DNA from: a virus
Direction: 5' to 3' (one strand)
Virus genome (UHGV): UHGV-0164601
Length of the DNA: 40,804 nucleotides
Shown here: positions 5,026 through 37,311 of the stretch, in pieces
How the letters are laid out: each line of letters opens with the position of its first letter
Position numbering within the stretch: position 1 is the first letter of the stretch
Notes under the pieces: model-generated
Database searches by the model: none
Told to the model about the DNA's origin: nothing
The model's input: the letters and a program-made list of their open reading frames with translations, nothing else
Translations under genes and position numbers: made by a program

Positions 5026-5040
5026 TTACCGTTGAGGTAA
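5026..5040. promoter_or_regulatory. Operator-like palindrome TTACC-GTTGA-GGTAA overlapping the predicted start of the leftward early transcript
   Basis: Perfect 5-bp inverted half-sites with 5-bp spacer; same motif recurs at more than 10 operon starts. Confidence 0.55.
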
Positions 5041-5068
5041 TAATTATGCGTATATGGTTTGATGTCAA
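5041..5068 (-). promoter_or_regulatory. Candidate sigma70 promoter of the leftward early operon
   Basis: Perfect -35 TTGACA on the minus strand (5068..5063) with an AT-rich -10-like hexamer (CATAAT-like, about 5048..5043); bracketed by palindromes at 5026-5040 and 5088-5102. Confidence 0.45.
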
Positions 5069-5087
5069 TAGATATGAGTTAAAAAAA

Positions 5088-5102
5088 TTACCCGTTAGGT
5101 AA
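5088..5102. promoter_or_regulatory. Operator-like palindrome TTACC-CGTTA-GGTAA upstream of the early-left -35
   Basis: Perfect copy of the recurring 15-bp palindrome. Confidence 0.55.
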
Positions 5103-5159: not shown

Positions 5160-5744
5160 TTATTGTTTGTTTTTTTCGTTCTGGTTGATGACAAATTCAA
5201 TGTAACTTTCGATCTTTGCTTTCTCGGTTTCGGGTAACAATGCGTAGCGCGAGCGATCATAGTTGATGGTCGCAGGGTCGTGCGGGTGAATCAGTAATTC
5301 ATAGCCGTGACGCCCGAATGCGGATGCAACATTCTCCAGGGTGGAAATGGAAACGCTGACCTCATTGTTTAACAGGCGGCTGATTGTCACCTGGGCGACG
5401 CCGGATGCGCGGTGAAGTTTTCCCTGTGTTGAAAGGTCGCGGCTTTCGCTCATCCAGCGTTCCAGGTTGTGAGCCGCCAGCTGGCCAATGTCGCTTGGGC
5501 CGACAGGCTGAAAACCTTCCTGAGAAAGCGAGCGATCGATATCAAGCCAGTTACGGGGTTTATTGGCGGCAGCTTCAATTTTTCGCGCAACCTGATCGCC
5601 GATAACCTTCTTACCAAGAGCCCAGCGGTTTACCAGATTTGCCTGAGTTCCAAGTTTTTCAGCCATCCGCGTCTGAACACCATTGAATTCACGGTCGATC
5701 AAGTCGTTGAGATTTTGCCTGCGGACGTCCTGGATACTTTTCAT
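5160..5744 (-). CDS. Prophage repressor, double helix-turn-helix, no LexA-like S24 peptidase domain
   Basis: N-terminal XRE-type HTH (QTRMAEKLGTQANLVNRWALGKKVIGDQVARKIE) and a second HTH-like segment (VAQVTISRLLNNEVSVSISTLENVASAFG); divergent from a Cro-like gene; no Ser-Lys autocleavage module seen. Confidence 0.65.
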   Translation of the reverse strand: MKSIQDVRRQNLNDLIDREFNGVQTRMAEKLGTQANLVNRWALGKKVIGDQVARKIEAAANKPRNWLDIDRSLSQEGFQPVGPSDIGQLAAHNLERWMSESRDLSTQGKLHRASGVAQVTISRLLNNEVSVSISTLENVASAFGRHGYELLIHPHDPATINYDRSRYALLPETEKAKIESYIEFVINQNEKNKQ

Positions 5745-5799: not shown

Positions 5800-5862
5800 T
5801 TACCCAACAGGTAAATGCACCTCATGGGTAACTATCCTTGATTTTTGTTACCTTATGGGTGA
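5800..5862. promoter_or_regulatory. Three tandem operator sites in the repressor/Cro-like intergenic region
   Basis: TTACC-CAACA-GGTAA (5800-5814), GCACC-TCATG-GGTAA (5817-5831), TTACC-TTATG-GGTGA (5848-5862). Confidence 0.6.
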
Positions 5863-8210: not shown

Positions 8211-8555
8211 ATGAGAAAACAGATACAGGCTCTTGGTCGGCTCAAAACAGGCCAGATGAACAAAACAGAATCTGCGTATTGCCAGCACCTTGAGCTGCGT
8301 AAACGTGCAGGGGAAATCGCATGGTATCGATTCGAGGGTATCAAGCTGCGGTTAGCTGACAACACGTTCTATACGCCAGATTTCGCTGTGATGCTCGCCA
8401 CCGGAGAGATGGAACTGCACGAAGTGAAAGGTTTCTGGACCGACGACGCCAGGGTGAAAACCAAAGTCGCCGCAGATCAGTATCCGTTCCGAATCATCGG
8501 GGTAACGGTTAAACCAAAGAAAGCAGGTGGTGGCTGGAACATCGAAGAGTTCTGA
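8211..8555 (+). CDS. DUF1064-like phage protein (putative nuclease-fold protein of replication/nin regions)
   Basis: 114 aa; pattern AYCQHLELRKRAGEIAWYRFEGIKLRL...YTPDFAVML...ELHEVKG resembles DUF1064 family members. Confidence 0.5.
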   Translation: MRKQIQALGRLKTGQMNKTESAYCQHLELRKRAGEIAWYRFEGIKLRLADNTFYTPDFAVMLATGEMELHEVKGFWTDDARVKTKVAADQYPFRIIGVTVKPKKAGGGWNIEEF

Positions 8556-14360: not shown

Positions 14361-14437
14361 GAACTGGAAGCAATGAGTTATGCCTTCCGTGGCTGTACTG
14401 GTTTACAGCATGAAGTCATCGCAATGGCGTCCTGCTG

Positions 14438-14523: not shown

Positions 14524-14600
14524 TGGCGTGGCATGCAGGATTCGAACCTGCGACCAACCGCTTAGAAGGCGGTTGCTCTGTCCAACTGAGCTAATGCCAC
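14524..14600 (-). tRNA. tRNA-Arg, anticodon UCU (decodes AGA), phage-internal
   Basis: 77-nt cloverleaf read from the reverse complement: acceptor GTGGCAT/ATGCCAC, D-arm GCTC/GAGC, anticodon stem ACCGC/GCGGT with loop CTTCTAA, T-arm GCAGG-TTCGAAT-CCTGC, discriminator G, encoded CCA. Confidence 0.85.
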
Positions 14601-14922: not shown

Positions 14923-14937
14923 TTACCTGAAAGGTAA
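14923..14937. promoter_or_regulatory. Operator-like palindrome TTACC-TGAAA-GGTAA upstream of the portal operon
   Basis: Perfect copy; 44 bp upstream of ATGTGGTT (14982-14989). Confidence 0.5.
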
Positions 14938-30378: not shown

Positions 30379-31230
30379 ATGAAAAAAATAAATTTGTTTT
30401 TTGGCATAGTGCTTTCAATAGTCTCTGTAAATCCTACAGCTGCCAGTTCATTGCAATGCAATAAGGATAACTTTGATGCATGCAAAACGTGCGAACAATT
30501 ATCAAAGGCTATCGACTTAAAAGAACCTAATCGTGGCGATTACTATAGAGGGGCTTTATGGAATGGGCTTTACGCCTCTTATGTAATTAATTGCCCTGTG
30601 GTTGCAGAGAAGTTACTGAGCCATGGTGCTATACCATCATATGGCGGATATATGGGGTCTATGGGGGCGGTTCTGACAGGAAAATGGCCTCATAACAATG
30701 AATCAATAAATCTTTCATGGGCAGATTTGCTTATAAAACATGGATTTGATGTTAATAGGCATACGGGGAATTATAAATCAGCTACTGAAGTATGGGCTAT
30801 AGATAAAAAACAGATTGAATATAAGTCAGTTTTTGACAAGTTAATTCAATCCAGCGAAGTAAAACCACTCGATCCTTCAAGAAATTTAGAATGGTGTGCG
30901 TCTGAAGGGTATCGCTCAGTTGTCGTTTATTCCCTTAACTCATGTATAGAAAATGCTATAAAACGTTTGGATGACGGTGTTTCTTCAGCGTCTGATATTT
31001 CATCAGCAGCCGTAAATTCCTGTACTAGCGATGTAGAAAATTTCAATAAGCATTTGGCATGCAAAGCAGCTGTTAAAGAAAACTCTGATAAAGAGAGAAG
31101 CAACGTTTACCAGTTATTAACCAGTGATAGTCAAATGAATAAAAATGTTATTGATATGCTGAAGGAAAGAAATATTGAAACGGTTCTTGAATTTAGAGCT
31201 GAAAATCGATCAGCGAAAACTGCACAGTGA
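30379..31230 (+). CDS. Secreted protein of unknown function (moron), possible ankyrin-like repeats
   Basis: Signal-peptide-like N-terminus MKKINLFFGIVLSIVSVNPTAASS; visibly AT-rich codon usage; LL.HGA / LLIKHGFDVNRHT ankyrin-like segments; own terminator. Confidence 0.55.
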   Translation: MKKINLFFGIVLSIVSVNPTAASSLQCNKDNFDACKTCEQLSKAIDLKEPNRGDYYRGALWNGLYASYVINCPVVAEKLLSHGAIPSYGGYMGSMGAVLTGKWPHNNESINLSWADLLIKHGFDVNRHTGNYKSATEVWAIDKKQIEYKSVFDKLIQSSEVKPLDPSRNLEWCASEGYRSVVVYSLNSCIENAIKRLDDGVSSASDISSAAVNSCTSDVENFNKHLACKAAVKENSDKERSNVYQLLTSDSQMNKNVIDMLKERNIETVLEFRAENRSAKTAQ

Positions 31231-31236
31231 TCAAAC

Positions 31237-31261
31237 AGGCCGCTTTCGCGGCCTTGTTTTT
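31237..31261 (+). terminator. Rho-independent terminator after the secreted-protein gene
   Basis: AGGCCGC-TTTC-GCGGCCT hairpin followed by TGTTTTT. Confidence 0.6.
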
Positions 31262-31300
31262 AACGAATGCCACCGCCGCCTGGGTGGGAATCCGCAGACA

Positions 31301-31323
31301 CAAAAAAGCCCGCGCCGCGGGCT
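31301..31323 (-). terminator. Rho-independent terminator of the minus-strand two-gene cassette
   Basis: GCCCGC-GCC-GCGGGC hairpin containing the stop codon, followed on the minus strand by TTTTTTGT. Confidence 0.5.
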
Positions 31324-31762
31324 ATTCTTCTTCATCATAAAAAAGCGGATTGTCGTTTCCATCTGATGAAAGGAAAGGTATGTGTTCTCTTGAAAATCCA
31401 ACAACGACAATTTCATTATCATTTTTTGCATAATGAATGCATTCATTAGAATGCATTCCGCCAGGGTTGAAATTTAAGTTAATGGTATAATTCTTAAATG
31501 TGTTTGGATACCATGTTGGCCCACAATGATAATGCCAATAATTCTCTTGCTCATAATTGTCTGAGCCGGGAATTTTATCATGGTTATCATCAACCCACGA
31601 TGGCTTGTTTTTTCCAACAAGCGCCCTTCCATTGGCAACATCTTCTAAAAACCTTTGTATGATTTTTATTTCATCGTCAGTAAGGAAAGGTCCGTCTACA
31701 GCGAAAGGGGTGTTGCTTTCCCCATTTAGAAAACTATTAGATATTCTAATGTTAAACTTCAA
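31322..31762 (-). CDS. Hypothetical protein (146 aa), distal gene of a two-gene moron cassette
   Basis: TTG start at 31762 with AGGAG 6 nt upstream; AT-rich; conserved-looking YWHYHCGP segment; acidic C-terminus FYDEEE; no family recognised. Confidence 0.5.
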   Translation of the reverse strand: MKFNIRISNSFLNGESNTPFAVDGPFLTDDEIKIIQRFLEDVANGRALVGKNKPSWVDDNHDKIPGSDNYEQENYWHYHCGPTWYPNTFKNYTINLNFNPGGMHSNECIHYAKNDNEIVVVGFSREHIPFLSSDGNDNPLFYDEEE

Positions 31763-32737: not shown

Positions 32738-32890
32738 AGTGATCACCTTTGTAGTTAGGTTAATCACCACTACCGACGCCAATCGGTTGGTGGTGAACTG
32801 TGCAGGGTTGGCGTAACCGGCTACAAAGGACCCGGCGCACCTTTCGGTGCCCCCACACAGCCCACCATAGAATAGGTGCGCTTTACACAT

Positions 32891-32909
32891 AAAAAAACCG
32901 CTTATGCGG
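32891..32909 (-). terminator. Weak terminator/attenuator-like hairpin in the antirepressor leader
   Basis: CCGC-TTAT-GCGG hairpin followed on the minus strand by TTTTTTT. Confidence 0.3.
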
Positions 32910-32924
32910 CATATGTGCCTCTGT

Positions 32925-32976
32925 AGTAATCCGGGACGCCAATCCCGGCACTGGATTTTGCCAGTGCCCGATTACT
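32925..32976. other. Structured element (nested inverted repeats) upstream of the antirepressor; candidate leader RNA or small RNA
   Basis: AGTAATCCGGG...CCCGATTACT outer stem enclosing hairpins CCGGGA-CGCCAA-TCCCGG and CACTGG-ATTTTG-CCAGTG. Confidence 0.3.
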
Positions 32977-33003
32977 ATGGCACAAGAGGAGTGCAATGTA
33001 AAT

Positions 33004-33018
33004 TTACCGTAAAGGTAA
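33004..33018. promoter_or_regulatory. Operator-like palindrome TTACC-GTAAA-GGTAA
   Basis: Perfect copy in the divergent region between the antirepressor and the membrane zinc-ribbon gene. Confidence 0.5.
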
Positions 33019-33131: not shown

Positions 33132-33860
33132 ATGGAAGTTTTCTGGATAGTTGTTGGTGTGGTTGCGGTGATTATTTACGTTATCAACCAGAACAAGACT
33201 AAGATCTCTGATCGTACGGTCGTTAATCATAACAAAACGATAAAGACCGAAGATGGGGAGATAACGATTAATCGTACACAGGTGATAGAACACACCTCTA
33301 CTCAGTTTCAAAAAACTGGAGGTAATGCGCCTAATATTTCCGCACCTCCTGCTTATGATAGTGCGGTAATCCAGACATATTATAAACAGCAGGAGTTAGC
33401 AAAAGAGAGGCAACTGATTCAGCCAAAGCCGTTTACAGCTGAGATTCCACCTGGAGTGTCAACGCGTCCGGCATATCATGGAAGATTCCCTGGTGATGAC
33501 ATATCGTCTCAGTCATCTAAAAAAGCACCTCAGGCAATATCAGAGCCAGCAAGAATACCTTCTGTATCGCTGCCAAAAGAAGAATCAGCTAACAGAGTTT
33601 CAAGTGGTAGCAAGCAGTGCTTGCGATGCAGAATAAACCTTCCATATGAAAAATTCAGGAAATCGTCAAAAAATCCAGATGGATTGACTAAATGGTGTGC
33701 AAGGTGTCTCGATGGCCCAAAGAATACACGCCATATGAAGTGGTGCCCAATTTGTAATGTCCGCAGAAAACGAACCAGCTTTTACCCTAATAATCAAAAT
33801 GCGGACGGCTTAATGGCATGGTGCAAAACGTGCTGGGATGAGCACAAAGCGAAACGATAG
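33132..33860 (+). CDS. Membrane-anchored protein with duplicated CxxC-x22-WCxxC zinc-ribbon (rubredoxin-like) modules
   Basis: N-terminal hydrophobic helix FWIVVGVVAVIIYVI, Pro/Ser/Gln-rich linker, then CLRC...DGLTKWCARC and CPIC...DGLMAWCKTC repeats; GAGGA before ATG 33132. Confidence 0.6.
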   Translation: MEVFWIVVGVVAVIIYVINQNKTKISDRTVVNHNKTIKTEDGEITINRTQVIEHTSTQFQKTGGNAPNISAPPAYDSAVIQTYYKQQELAKERQLIQPKPFTAEIPPGVSTRPAYHGRFPGDDISSQSSKKAPQAISEPARIPSVSLPKEESANRVSSGSKQCLRCRINLPYEKFRKSSKNPDGLTKWCARCLDGPKNTRHMKWCPICNVRRKRTSFYPNNQNADGLMAWCKTCWDEHKAKR

Positions 33861-33884
33861 GCCGCTCTTGCGGCCTTTAAATTT
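33860..33884 (+). terminator. Rho-independent terminator after the zinc-ribbon gene
   Basis: GGCCGC-TCTT-GCGGCC hairpin followed by TTTAAATTT. Confidence 0.55.
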
Positions 33885-34140
33885 ACCGGGTTTGTTTTCG
33901 TAATTGTTCGGCACAATAGTCGAGATGTGTTTGCAGATCCCGCATAGACATCTGTGAGCTGGTGACGTAGTTAATCAGTGCAGTCAGTTCGGCAAGTGGG
34001 CCATCGACATTAAATCCATCCTTATCGAGATCCCGGAGTAATTTCATCAAGTGCGATCCCTCCACCAGTGACCTGACGCCTCCCGGCGTGTGAATCCTTT
34101 CGGTAAATCCGTCTTCCAGTGGATAGTGATACTGCTGCAT
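33883..34140 (-). CDS. Small antirepressor-like protein (85 aa), stand-alone paralog of the antirepressor C-terminal domain, with a LexA box in its promoter
   Basis: TPGGVRSLVEGSHLMKLLRDLDKDGFNVDGPLAELTALINYV...MRDLQTHLDY aligns with the C-terminus of the 32051-32737 protein (SPSGVLGLTENSLLMNLLNQLQDDGHDVSGAAAELTTMFCYI...LRDIQTHAEY); start at ATG 34140 with GGAG upstream. Confidence 0.55.
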   Translation of the reverse strand: MQQYHYPLEDGFTERIHTPGGVRSLVEGSHLMKLLRDLDKDGFNVDGPLAELTALINYVTSSQMSMRDLQTHLDYCAEQLRKQTR

Positions 34141-34159
34141 CTTATCTTCTCCATGCAAT

Positions 34160-34179
34160 AACTGTATATTTATACAGTA
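34160..34179. promoter_or_regulatory. LexA (SOS) box
   Basis: AACTGTATATTTATACAGTA: CTGT-N8-ACAG with an AT-only spacer, 18 of 20 matches to the E. coli consensus TACTGTATATATATACAGTA; 20 bp upstream of ATG 34140. Confidence 0.65.
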
Positions 34180-34216
34180 GCAAATAATTTGTTTGCTATC
34201 CAGCACGTTTTGCAAA

Positions 34217-34231
34217 TTACCCGAAAGGTAA
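34217..34231. promoter_or_regulatory. Operator-like palindrome TTACC-CGAAA-GGTAA
   Basis: Perfect copy between the SOS-box gene and the tailspike gene; 32 bp upstream of ATGTGGTT (34264-34271). Confidence 0.5.
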
Positions 34232-34335
34232 TATCTATTCATATTCACAGTATTTCTATCCATATGTGGTTTTTCAGGTAATAGAATAACCGGATATGCG
34301 GCGCAACGGGTGCTGCGACTATCTGGAGATTTAAC

Positions 34336-37311
34336 ATGACGGTCTCAACCGAAGTTGACCACAACGAATACACAGGTAACGGCGTTACGACATCATTTCC
34401 GTATACCTTTAGGGTTTTCAAGGAATCTGATCTGGCAGTACAGGTGGTTGACCTTGACGAAAATATCGCTGTGCTGGCTCTTGATACTGATTACACTGTC
34501 ACTGGGGCTGGTGGATATAATGGCGGTAATGTAATTCTGTCGAAGGCGTTAGCTAACGGTTATCAGATTTCTATATCACGAGAGCTACCGGTTACGCAGG
34601 AAACTGATCTGCGAAATCAGGGAAAGTTTTTCGCTGAGGTGCATGAAGACGCGTTAGATAAGCTGACGATGCTGATACAGCAAGTCCGCAGTTGGTTTAG
34701 CCTGGCGCTGCGCAAACCATCATTTGTGGCAAACTATTACGATGCTTTGAATAATTACATCCGCAATTTGCGCGATCCTTCCAAGCCTCAAGATGCAGCT
34801 ACAAAGAATTATGTTGATAATATTGTTAATGTGAATATTAACAGGACATTACGGGTTCCAGATAATTTTATTGAACCACTTCCTCCAGTTCATTTACTGG
34901 AAGAAACTGTCATTGGTATCGTCAATGGTAAACCTATAGGTGTACCTGTGCCTTCTGGCAGTGCCGCAGATGTTCTTCTGCAATTATCTAGCGCAGGAGA
35001 AGGAAAAGGTGATGCATTAATTGGTGTAAGGCAGCCATTTGCCGGGGCTGTAACTATAACTCAGCATGAAAACAATGCTCTTTTCTTAAATGTAAAACAA
35101 TTCGGAGCAATTGGGGATGGGAAATATCATCCATTATCTGAGAGGTTTTCTTCAATTTCTGAAGCAAAATCCTTATATCCTTTTGTTGACTCATTATCTC
35201 AGTCAATAGACTGGGCCGCGTGGCAAGCTGCCATTAACACAGGAAAGGTTATTTATGGTACTGATAATGCGTATGTAATAACGGATACGTTAACACCTGT
35301 TTCTGGTGGTGGGATAATTGGTCTTGGTGTGGGCAAATGGGTCTCTGGATATACTGCAACATTTGCTCCTGATATTACCACAGGGACCACATTCCTGATG
35401 TACGGGGTAGGAAATAAAAAATATACTGTAGATTGTGTTTCTAATATGGATGTTAGTGGTGGTGTGGTTTCTAATCCATCTTCCGAAGACCCGTATACAA
35501 CAACGGCACCTGCGTCATCATATGATTTATTGGATTTTACTAACGGTGATGCTAATGGGACTACAAGAGCCACGCTTAAACCATTCTCTGCCGCAATATT
35601 GATGCCTGAGACAGGATGTGTTCGCCTTGAGAACTTTCGTGTTGTTCCATATTTCAATGGGCTGGATGGTTATAAAGACATTGCAAATACCGGTCTTGGC
35701 GATGAGTGGGATGTAGGTATTTGGTCACGTGCGTCTTTTGGCAATGAATACCGCAATTTGCAGGTGGTTGGATACTGGCGCAAGACGGCACTTTTAAAAA
35801 CGAACATTCCTGTATCTGGCACGCTGGCCGCTCAGGGCGAGGATGAAAACTATTATCACTGTAGATTCCAGGGATTCAAGGGTATTTCGATCCGCGCCCA
35901 TGATGTATTCCGAATTACAGCGGTAACGTCCAGCACTATCGAAATCCCATGGTCAGCAAGCCACACCTTCGAAACGTCCGGGGTTTTAAGATCTGGAGGC
36001 AGGAATTTCACTTATTCAGGATTATCCGTATCCGGTGATAAGTTAGTATTTACTGGAGTGTCTAACGCTTCTGAGGCAACAGTAGGTTCTACTATACGGC
36101 GAAATGACATAGATAACTTTGGTATGGCGGGAACGCAATTTTTCGATTGCTACATTACCAGCCTGTATCACCACACACATCTGCTTGCCACATCGCAATA
36201 CCTGTCTCAGCCATTCAGCCGGCCATCAGAGTGTATGGAGGTTTCAGGGGAACCAGTTCGCGGTGTACAGGTACATGCGGGAACCATTCAGGGATGGGAT
36301 GATGTTCTTATTCATCTGCATGACTGTGGAAATATGAACTTTTACAGTACATATTTCGAAAGCCAGCAAGCATATGTAACTATAAATGGTGGTAATGCTA
36401 TTGGTTATGGAGCACGTATGATAGCTTCCCGGCAATCAACAAGCTCATTACCATATGCAGCAGGGAATACTCGAGTGCTTAGAATGGTCGGGTGCTCTGA
36501 AGGCAATGGCGTTGACTGGGGTCCTGTATTTAACAACTATACAGGAGGAAGATATAATTCTGGAGACGGTGTATTTAACCCCCGCGATGCATTTATAGAC
36601 CATAAATCTCTTCCTGAGCAGTCAGGAGGTGAGTCAAGACTCGTATCACAAAAAGGAAATGCCAGAGTAGTATGTGGTGTTGGTAAAACTGTACTGCTTG
36701 GACCAACGTCAGGAGATTGTAATTTACAGAGCAATACTGGAAGTTTAAATATTAGAAGTGGGATAAGAGTAAGAATCGGTCACGCTGATGGAACAGACTG
36801 GTGGTTGGCAGATGCTAATAAAATAGCTCCTGTTGATGATAATGTTAAAGCTATTGGACAGCCATCAAACAGATGCTCTGTTATCTATGCAGGAACCGGG
36901 TCAATCAATACGTCAGATGAAACTCTTAAAACAAGATATGATATTCTTAATGCAGAGCGTAATGCCGCTATTGAAATAAAGTCAGTCATCTATAAATTTA
37001 AATTTAATGACTCAATTAATCACAAAGGAATTGAGTCGTCCAGGTATCATTTTGGCGTTGGCGCTCAAACCGTAGGGGATATTCTTAGAAAGCATGGTTT
37101 AAACCCTGAGCAATATGCTTTTTGGTGTTACGATGAATGGCCTGACGTATGGGATGAAGAGGTGATAACTGAAGAGAGCACAGATCCTGATACAGGTGAG
37201 AAAATTTATTCTCAATATAAAACAGGAGATATGATTCTTGTAAAAAAAGCAGGAGGACGCTACGGAATTCGTTATGACGAATTAGCCATGTTTATATTAA
37301 TGTCAATGTAA
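34336..37311 (+). CDS. Tailspike / tail fibre with central beta-helix (depolymerase-like) domain and C-terminal intramolecular chaperone (peptidase S74-like) domain
   Basis: N-terminal virion-attachment-like region (NEYTGNGVTTSFPYTF); pectate-lyase-type motif LNVKQFGAIGDGKYHP; C-terminal SDETLKTRYDILNAERNAAIEIKSV... resembling self-cleaving chaperone domains; GGAG before ATG 34336. Confidence 0.7.
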   Translation: MTVSTEVDHNEYTGNGVTTSFPYTFRVFKESDLAVQVVDLDENIAVLALDTDYTVTGAGGYNGGNVILSKALANGYQISISRELPVTQETDLRNQGKFFAEVHEDALDKLTMLIQQVRSWFSLALRKPSFVANYYDALNNYIRNLRDPSKPQDAATKNYVDNIVNVNINRTLRVPDNFIEPLPPVHLLEETVIGIVNGKPIGVPVPSGSAADVLLQLSSAGEGKGDALIGVRQPFAGAVTITQHENNALFLNVKQFGAIGDGKYHPLSERFSSISEAKSLYPFVDSLSQSIDWAAWQAAINTGKVIYGTDNAYVITDTLTPVSGGGIIGLGVGKWVSGYTATFAPDITTGTTFLMYGVGNKKYTVDCVSNMDVSGGVVSNPSSEDPYTTTAPASSYDLLDFTNGDANGTTRATLKPFSAAILMPETGCVRLENFRVVPYFNGLDGYKDIANTGLGDEWDVGIWSRASFGNEYRNLQVVGYWRKTALLKTNIPVSGTLAAQGEDENYYHCRFQGFKGISIRAHDVFRITAVTSSTIEIPWSASHTFETSGVLRSGGRNFTYSGLSVSGDKLVFTGVSNASEATVGSTIRRNDIDNFGMAGTQFFDCYITSLYHHTHLLATSQYLSQPFSRPSECMEVSGEPVRGVQVHAGTIQGWDDVLIHLHDCGNMNFYSTYFESQQAYVTINGGNAIGYGARMIASRQSTSSLPYAAGNTRVLRMVGCSEGNGVDWGPVFNNYTGGRYNSGDGVFNPRDAFIDHKSLPEQSGGESRLVSQKGNARVVCGVGKTVLLGPTSGDCNLQSNTGSLNIRSGIRVRIGHADGTDWWLADANKIAPVDDNVKAIGQPSNRCSVIYAGTGSINTSDETLKTRYDILNAERNAAIEIKSVIYKFKFNDSINHKGIESSRYHFGVGAQTVGDILRKHGLNPEQYAFWCYDEWPDVWDEEVITEESTDPDTGEKIYSQYKTGDMILVKKAGGRYGIRYDELAMFILMSM

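Follow-up and report, generated by a model that had tools for sequence, protein, structure and literature searches.

A probable SPC32H-type Rep/Ant/LexA induction switch in an epsilon15-like prophage of Escherichia coli

How does a prophage sense DNA damage when its repressor has no self-cleavage domain? The question is raised by a short gene beside the tailspike gene of an epsilon15-like (Uetakevirus) prophage of E. coli, which lies behind a near-consensus LexA box. The whole stretch of DNA that was analysed, referred to here as the window, is 40,804 nucleotides long. The closest relatives of the prophage are phiV10 and TL-2011b, and its order runs from the integrase at the left end through rep (5160-5744) and the late genes to the tailspike gene (34336-37311), the lysis genes and host genes. 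A first-pass annotation of the window, made from the sequence alone, had proposed that a LexA-repressed small antirepressor, and not repressor cleavage, is the link between damage and induction. That proposal is supported by the orthology of both Ant and Rep, by the lack of a Peptidase_S24 domain in Rep and by the presence of the box in 17 of 17 related loci. It is concluded, with a probability of roughly 0.9, that the prophage possesses the Rep/Ant/LexA switch for induction known from Salmonella phage SPC32H.

Judged by homology and gene order, the 85-aa product is an ortholog of SPC32H Ant. A phmmer search of all PDB sequences with this protein returned a single match, chain E of entry 5D50 ('Anti-repressor protein', 86 aa), with an E-value of 1.4e-46 and residues 2-84 aligned to residues 3-85; chains E and A of this entry are Ant and Rep of SPC32H. 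The protein is 86.7% identical to the SPC32H locus by tblastn and about 85% identical to Salmonella orthologs, and it matches phrog_450 (E 7e-48). The gene is syntenic with SPC32H ant and with epsilon15 gp19. In the SPC32H GenBank record (KC911856) the syntenic gene is named 'ant' and diverges from the tailspike gene 'tsp', and the same divergent arrangement with the tailspike gene was found in the present Uetakevirus genome. No Pfam or NCBIfam model was found for Ant; a Pfam match to DUF724 was set aside, having reached 17 bits against a cut-off of 38. The features of the locus and of the related control regions are collected in Table 1.

Table 1. Features of the ant locus and associated control regions in the window (positions on the window; a dot stands where no strand applies)
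Feature	Position	Strand	Basis
Two exact TTACC-N5-GGTAA sites, OL-like, downstream of rep	5026..5102	.	Pattern search
rep, 194-aa repressor, putative target of Ant	5160..5744	-	Match to 5D50 chain A
Candidate operator cluster, OR-like, between rep and divergent 76-aa gene	5800..5862	.	Pattern search and inspection
Bro-N antirepressor, 229 aa	32051..32740	-	Pfam Bro-N, E 5e-20
C4 antisense RNA in Bro-N leader	32786..32872	-	Rfam RF01695, 79.5 bits (gathering score 45)
isrK-type sRNA with its own terminator, first element of Bro-N leader	32891..32967	-	Rfam RF01394, 76.8 bits (gathering score 50)
Promoter-like TTTACA-17-CATAGT, TG-extended	32974..33018	-	TTACC-N5-GGTAA (33004-33018) abuts the -35
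G+C-rich hairpin between ant stop codon and convergent 242-aa ORF	33859..33876	.	Terminator scan
ant, 85-aa antirepressor, ortholog of SPC32H Ant	33883..34140 (stop codon included)	-	phmmer against PDB, tblastn, synteny
Shine-Dalgarno sequence of ant, GGAGAAG	34146..34152	-	Read directly
Putative ant promoter: -35 TGGATA (34202-34197), TG (34182-34181), -10 TACTGT (34179-34174)	34174..34202	-	Conserved blocks
LexA (SOS) box, TACTGTATAAATATACAGTT	34160..34179	.	18 of 20 positions of consensus, 27.8 bits
17-bp palindrome ATTACC-N5-GGTAAT, candidate Rep operator	34216..34232	.	Sequence, conservation, epsilon15 annotation

Most of the 17 aligned loci retain the GGAG core of the ant Shine-Dalgarno sequence, and its conservation upstream of the ATG at 34140 supports the 85-aa start over that of a 126-aa ORF beginning at 34263. 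The longer ORF (33883-34263) was ruled out, as it would cross both the LexA box and the operator; it is also contradicted by the length of the crystallised protein, 86 aa, and by the GGAG before the internal ATG. The search for homologous proteins gave at least 120 matches. Public gene calls often lengthen ant to 126-127 aa by use of an upstream ATG, one such cluster having 833 members, and these calls are probably start-site errors.

Two further blocks, CTGGA and TTTG.TA, are conserved upstream of ant in the 17-locus alignment. The second lies just before and inside the LexA box, and its conservation suggests that TTTG.TA is the TG-extended -10 element of the ant promoter. In the promoter so proposed the -10 hexamer TACTGT falls within the box, with TGGATA placed 17 bp upstream, so that bound LexA would occlude the -10. 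A generic sigma-70 scan called no promoter at the LexA box.

The box reads AACTGTATATTTATACAGTA on the plus strand at 34160-34179 and TACTGTATAAATATACAGTT on the minus strand (34179-34160). It agrees with the LexA consensus TACTGTATATATATACAGTA at 18 of 20 positions, just as the first-pass annotation had stated. The placement upstream of the gene given there also stands, with a correction of the distance: 19 nt, and not 20, separate the box from the ATG (34140). Scoring with a weight matrix had been suggested as a check on the site. The matrix used here was a symmetrised and approximate one, made from 29 E. coli LexA boxes of the kind gathered in SOS-box compilations, for example Fernandez de Henestrosa 2000. 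On this matrix the box scores 27.8 bits, above every one of the 29 training sites (12.4-26.7), and it is the sole 20-mer in the 40.8-kb window to exceed the training minimum of 12.4 bits, the runner-up reaching 10.1. None of 200 shuffles equalled its score (mean of maxima 11.9 bits, largest 24.8). The bare pattern CTGT-N8-ACAG occurs exactly three times in the window, and the two other occurrences, at 14393 and 18935, have G+C-rich centres and score no more than 10 bits. The matrix scan of the window found no LexA-like site near rep or near the Bro-N gene, which confirms the earlier remark that neither the repressor nor the full-length antirepressor is preceded by a LexA box.

Comparison of related loci extends these results. 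Each of the 17 loci has a LexA-like box, scoring 12.8-28.4 bits, at a constant distance from the ant ATG, and the box stays fixed while the neighbouring bases diverge. The set is made up of 11 phage loci, the window included, and six prophages (two in Citrobacter and one each in Erwinia, Superficieibacter, Pseudocitrobacter and Scandinavium) from a contig scan with strict peptide patterns; together the loci represent nine genera, namely Escherichia, Salmonella, Citrobacter, Enterobacter, Klebsiella, Erwinia, Superficieibacter, Pseudocitrobacter and Scandinavium. The box aligns column for column with those of SPC32H and epsilon15. When the ant-tailspike intergenic regions of the window, phiV10, SPC32H and epsilon15 are aligned, the LexA box, the ATTACC-N5-GGTAAT palindrome, CTGGATAG and the ribosome-binding site stand out as islands of identity within diverged sequence. 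Service of the box to the tailspike gene was ruled out, because the box lies 157 bp from the ATG of that gene and faces the opposite way, and because its distance from the ant ATG is fixed. Three Klebsiella phages and the Superficieibacter prophage have ATGT in place of CTGT in one arm of the box, with scores of 12.8-18.1 bits; this weaker box could mean looser SOS control in those hosts.

The repressor offers the other half of the pair. By its matches to the same crystallised complex, Rep is an ortholog of SPC32H Rep: it aligns with chain A of 5D50, named 'Repressor', over residues 1-190 (E 4e-42), and with 5D4Z, the structure of a C-terminal fragment (E 4e-20). Pfam searches of Rep returned helix-turn-helix families only (HTH_3) and no Peptidase_S24 (self-cleavage) domain. 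Its sequence is that of phiV10 Rep (100% identity), and its identity to the epsilon15/SPC32H-type repressor is only 42%. Conservation of the two partners is therefore asymmetric, Ant being about 85% identical to its Salmonella orthologs and Rep only 42%, though the operator motif is the same, and this asymmetry could permit cross-talk between heteroimmune relatives.

From these elements, and by analogy with SPC32H, the following course of events can be proposed. In the lysogen, host LexA would occupy the SOS box at 34160-34179 and cover the probable -10 of ant, keeping the gene silent, while Rep, as a tetrameric helix-turn-helix repressor that lacks a self-cleavage domain, would hold the lytic promoters off, probably by way of the ATTACC-N5-GGTAAT operators. 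DNA damage would activate RecA, LexA would cleave itself and ant would be transcribed. Ant, a tetramer in SPC32H, would then bind the C-terminal domains of Rep and split the Rep tetramer into dimers, whereupon the dimers would leave the DNA and lytic growth would begin.

This switch is not new, having been published from another phage in the genus together with a crystal structure of the orthologous complex. The SPC32H studies by Kim and Ryu (J Virol 2013) and by Kim et al. (PNAS 2016) reportedly include LexA footprinting and promoter mapping and describe this mechanism. The present prophage shares with SPC32H the genus Uetakevirus, an ant gene divergent from the tailspike gene, an Ant about 87% identical, a homologous Rep without a cleavage domain, a LexA box at equal distance from the ATG and an ATTACC-N5-GGTAAT palindrome upstream, with 5D4Z and 5D50 as the corresponding structures. 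It differs from SPC32H in its host, E. coli, and in its Rep, the phiV10 allele, which is only about 42% identical; unlike both SPC32H and epsilon15, it has an isrK-C4-Bro-N::Ant-domain cassette and a 242-aa ORF between ant and the injection-protein genes. [quoted passage not shown] LexA binding, SOS induction and Ant-Rep contact are, on this precedent, to be expected in the E. coli phage as well; the expectation of contact extends across a considerable divergence of Rep (only 42% identical), Ant being about 85% identical.

A second regulatory motif was found at the locus. The first-pass annotation had pointed to a TTACC-N5-GGTAA site 37 bp further upstream as a sign of dual control, and the site, TTACCCGAAAGGTAA, is indeed present at 34217-34231, 37 bp beyond the LexA box. 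The pattern occurs in the window as 11 exact and 3 one-mismatch sites against 0.63 expected, the 14 sites beginning at 5026, 5088, 5800, 5848, 8131, 8193, 11715, 11733, 14923, 31963, 33004, 33097, 34217 and 37842. Almost all are intergenic, often paired 18-93 bp apart, and they precede early, late, lysis-proximal and antirepressor genes. Thus pairs lie 5' of the gene at 8211 and of the small terminase gene (11715 and 11733), single sites lie at 14923 and 31963, and two sites fall in the Bro-N intergenic region (33004 and 33097). The distribution suggests that one repressor may directly control most of the transcription units.

Several observations favour Rep as that repressor. At the place equivalent to the OL-like pair downstream of rep (5026..5102), the epsilon15 record has three annotated 'repressor' sites. 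In the OR-like cluster the site at 5848-5862 occupies the spacer of a TTGATT-17-GAATAT promoter, assigned by inspection, that faces the 76-aa gene; the spacer is a classic operator position. Upstream of ant, 15 of the 17 loci have an exact TTACC-N5-GGTAA at -91/-94 relative to the ATG, its arms invariant and its central 5 bp variable. In the GenBank record of epsilon15 the same 17-bp palindromes, at equivalent places, are entered as protein_bind features with the label 'repressor, lysogeny', and one of these lies upstream of gp19, the Ant ortholog. The palindrome is, on this comparative evidence, likely to be the Rep operator, a candidate that epsilon15 annotation already contains.

The window holds a second protein with an Ant domain. 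Residues 148-224 of the Bro-N antirepressor form a complete Ant domain, aligned with residues 3-79 of 5D50_E (E 1.9e-13), and residues 148-225 of that protein share 41% identity with Ant itself over 78 residues (BLASTP, E 3e-16), in agreement with the earlier description of the 85-aa product as a paralog of the antirepressor C-terminal domain. The Bro-N gene is preceded by a structured leader. The 5' end of the isrK-type RNA lies 7 nt past the predicted -10, and the C4 RNA follows, about 46 nt from the Bro-N ATG. The C4 loop CCUUUGUAG (9 nt) is complementary to CUACAAAGG, the one pair that was checked, and CUACAAAGG overlaps the AAGG Shine-Dalgarno sequence of the Bro-N gene. Both isrK and C4 accompany the Bro-N gene wherever it occurs among the related loci (10 of 10), and neither is present in the 6 without it; the gene and the two RNAs travel as a cassette. 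In phiV10 the Bro-N antirepressor is matched in two frames, corresponding to the annotated genes p23 and p22 (locus positions 1552-2231), and in the sequenced phage a frameshift appears to cut off the Ant-like C-domain of the protein.

The distribution of the domain separates a core gene from an accessory one. Every one of the 17 loci has the small Ant and 11 have the Bro-N fusion, which is missing from SPC32H, epsilon15, PAT1, BUCT554 and two genomic loci; the core gene is Ant, the fusion being accessory. In an exhaustive profile search of 1.84 billion cluster representatives the family has 62 members, which either stand alone at ~85 aa or form the C-terminus of longer proteins that begin with an AntA, Bro-N, Phage_pRha or ORF6N module. 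Of 50,697 phage records, 37 contain Rep and 32-35 the Ant domain, with few exceptions the same Uetakevirus-like phages, and this co-occurrence suggests that the Ant domain is matched to the Rep family.

Other explanations of the locus must be set against the proposed switch. That the LexA palindrome arose by chance and ant lies outside SOS control is scarcely credible, given a score that exceeds all 29 training sites and all 200 shuffles and a position kept throughout 17 loci and nine genera despite the divergence of the bases around it. It is also very improbable, though a little less so, that the box is functional while Ant acts mainly elsewhere than on Rep, either by joining the Bro-N protein, through its Ant domain, in mixed oligomers or by inactivating the repressors of other prophages. 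Ant is oligomeric and the Bro-N protein shares its whole domain, identity of about 85% for Ant against 42% for Rep would suit a broader range of targets, and trans-acting antirepressors are known in Salmonella; the complex of the orthologous Rep and Ant has, however, been crystallised (5D50), and the two proteins co-occur almost one-to-one across phage genomes. The origin of Ant has likewise two readings. The first-pass annotation saw in it a truncated copy of the phage's own antirepressor, and the homology on which this view was based holds: a full-length Ant domain is contained in Bro-N residues 148-224, and ant and the Bro-N gene lie on the same strand within 1.2 kb. Recent truncation of a resident duplicate is nevertheless very improbable, since Ant is found in loci that lack the fusion (17/17 against only 11/17), since Ant and the Bro-N C-domain of one genome are only 35-47% identical whereas Ant orthologs are 60-99% identical between genera, and since the Bro-N gene always travels with isrK and C4. 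The occurrence of the domain behind AntA, Phage_pRha and ORF6N as well points to old domain shuffling, which is how the relation of Ant to the Bro-N protein is best read from these comparisons. The reading that is retained is thus the SPC32H-type switch, to which the prophage brings the orthologs of the crystallised pair, the strong, unique and conserved box, a Rep without S24 and the synteny; no feature of the sequence speaks against it.

Within that switch, the part played by the palindrome upstream of ant is the point at which a rival carries most weight. On the proposed promoter, the palindrome is placed halfway towards the divergent tailspike gene, some 50-65 bp before the likely start site of ant, and control of ant by it in addition to LexA is plausible. 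The other view, rated as a minority possibility of some substance, is that the palindrome does not repress ant but serves the divergent tailspike promoter or anchors DNA looping by Rep, LexA alone controlling ant. With its centre about 57 bp upstream of the proposed ant start the palindrome is outside the core promoter, and it is roughly equidistant from a conserved TAGAAT, a -10-like element facing the tailspike gene; the same motif overlaps the core promoter in the OR-like region and at isrK and does not do so upstream of ant. Looping would be suited by the Rep tetramer, which has two DNA-binding pairs (PMC9638917), and an IHF site is annotated beside the palindrome in epsilon15. Direct control of ant is favoured, on the other side, by an alternative -35, TTGCAA (34215-34210), which abuts the palindrome in the geometry of the isrK promoter, where ATTACC-N5-GGTAAA abuts TTTACA, and by the distance between palindrome and ant ATG, which is fixed in 15 of the 17 loci.

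Relations to other induction systems are partly of function and partly of structure. The antirepressors of Gifsy and Fels-2 are reportedly LexA-controlled, as described by Lemire et al. in 2011. In those systems and in that of Tum from coliphage 186, as in the present one, a non-cleavable repressor is inactivated by the product of a small gene with an SOS box (PMC7380047). The likeness of Ant to Tum is functional only, Ant being without a Pfam or NCBIfam family and belonging to a family of just 62 cluster representatives. Phage P22 has in its immI region, with ant under Mnt/Arc, an antirepressor module beside the tailspike gene of a short-tailed temperate enterobacterial phage, a layout that is shared here; unlike the P22 gene, ant would be under LexA and possibly also Rep, not Mnt/Arc. 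P22 is still SOS-inducible without ant (PMC7380047).

The Bro-N paralog, as distinct from ant, has relatives of a different kind. It resembles the P1/P7 immI operon (c4 antisense RNA-icd-ant) and the isrK-orf45-anrP locus of Gifsy-1 (Hershko-Shalev et al. 2016, PMC4825925) in the isrK and C4 RNAs of its leader, in a C4 loop complementary to its ribosome-binding site and in a promoter next to which lies a candidate operator for the main repressor. Its effector, unlike that of P1, is an SPC32H-type Ant domain and not of the P1 Ant or KilAC type. From this a tentative idea arises, held at slightly less than even odds, that the Ant fold is a Rep-specific 'warhead' deployed twice, in both cases against the same non-cleavable repressor and possibly in mixed oligomers. 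The LexA-boxed Ant would form a DNA-damage channel, and the Bro-N C-domain behind isrK and C4 would form a superinfection or anti-immunity channel similar to P1 immI. No description of a LexA-boxed Ant paired with an isrK/C4-controlled Bro-N::Ant protein was found in the literature searched.

The value of the finding is practical only and lies in an annotation gap. The ant region is present in 531 of 5,426 complete E. coli genomes, under the RefSeq label 'hypothetical protein'; with no Pfam or NCBIfam model of Ant, a published switch is left without annotation in roughly one in ten of these genomes. For phiV10-like prophages, including those of O157 and other pathogenic strains, it is predicted that SOS-triggering antibiotics cause induction through Ant and not through repressor cleavage. 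The Bro-N::Ant-domain cassette under isrK and C4 provides a modest new lead on the shuffling of antirepressor modules.

Some minor observations concern the surroundings of ant and the rest of the prophage. The hairpin at 33859..33876 is likely a bidirectional terminator, and a rho-independent terminator is annotated at the equivalent place in the epsilon15 record. Convergent with ant, and between it and the Bro-N cassette, lies the 242-aa ORF (33132-33860, plus strand; phrog_6762), whose C-terminal Cys-rich repeats are similar to zinc ribbons of the endonuclease VII/Lar type; a Pfam match to Stc1 was below threshold and was set aside. A palindrome site lies 21 bp upstream of its ATG. The ORF is absent from phiV10, SPC32H and epsilon15, and the equivalent stretch of TL-2011b has no annotation beyond a misc_feature, 'similar to hypothetical protein'. 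Two cargo genes occupy 30379-31762, between an injection-protein gene and the Bro-N cassette; their products, of unknown function, are 283 aa long and secreted-looking (phrog_6118) and 146 aa long (phrog_5954), and Pfam has no family for either. Inside the prophage, between the terminase and portal regions, there is a tRNA gene (14527-14600, minus strand; Rfam 73.3 bits), and its anticodon loop, CUUCUAA, suggests tRNA-Arg(UCU).
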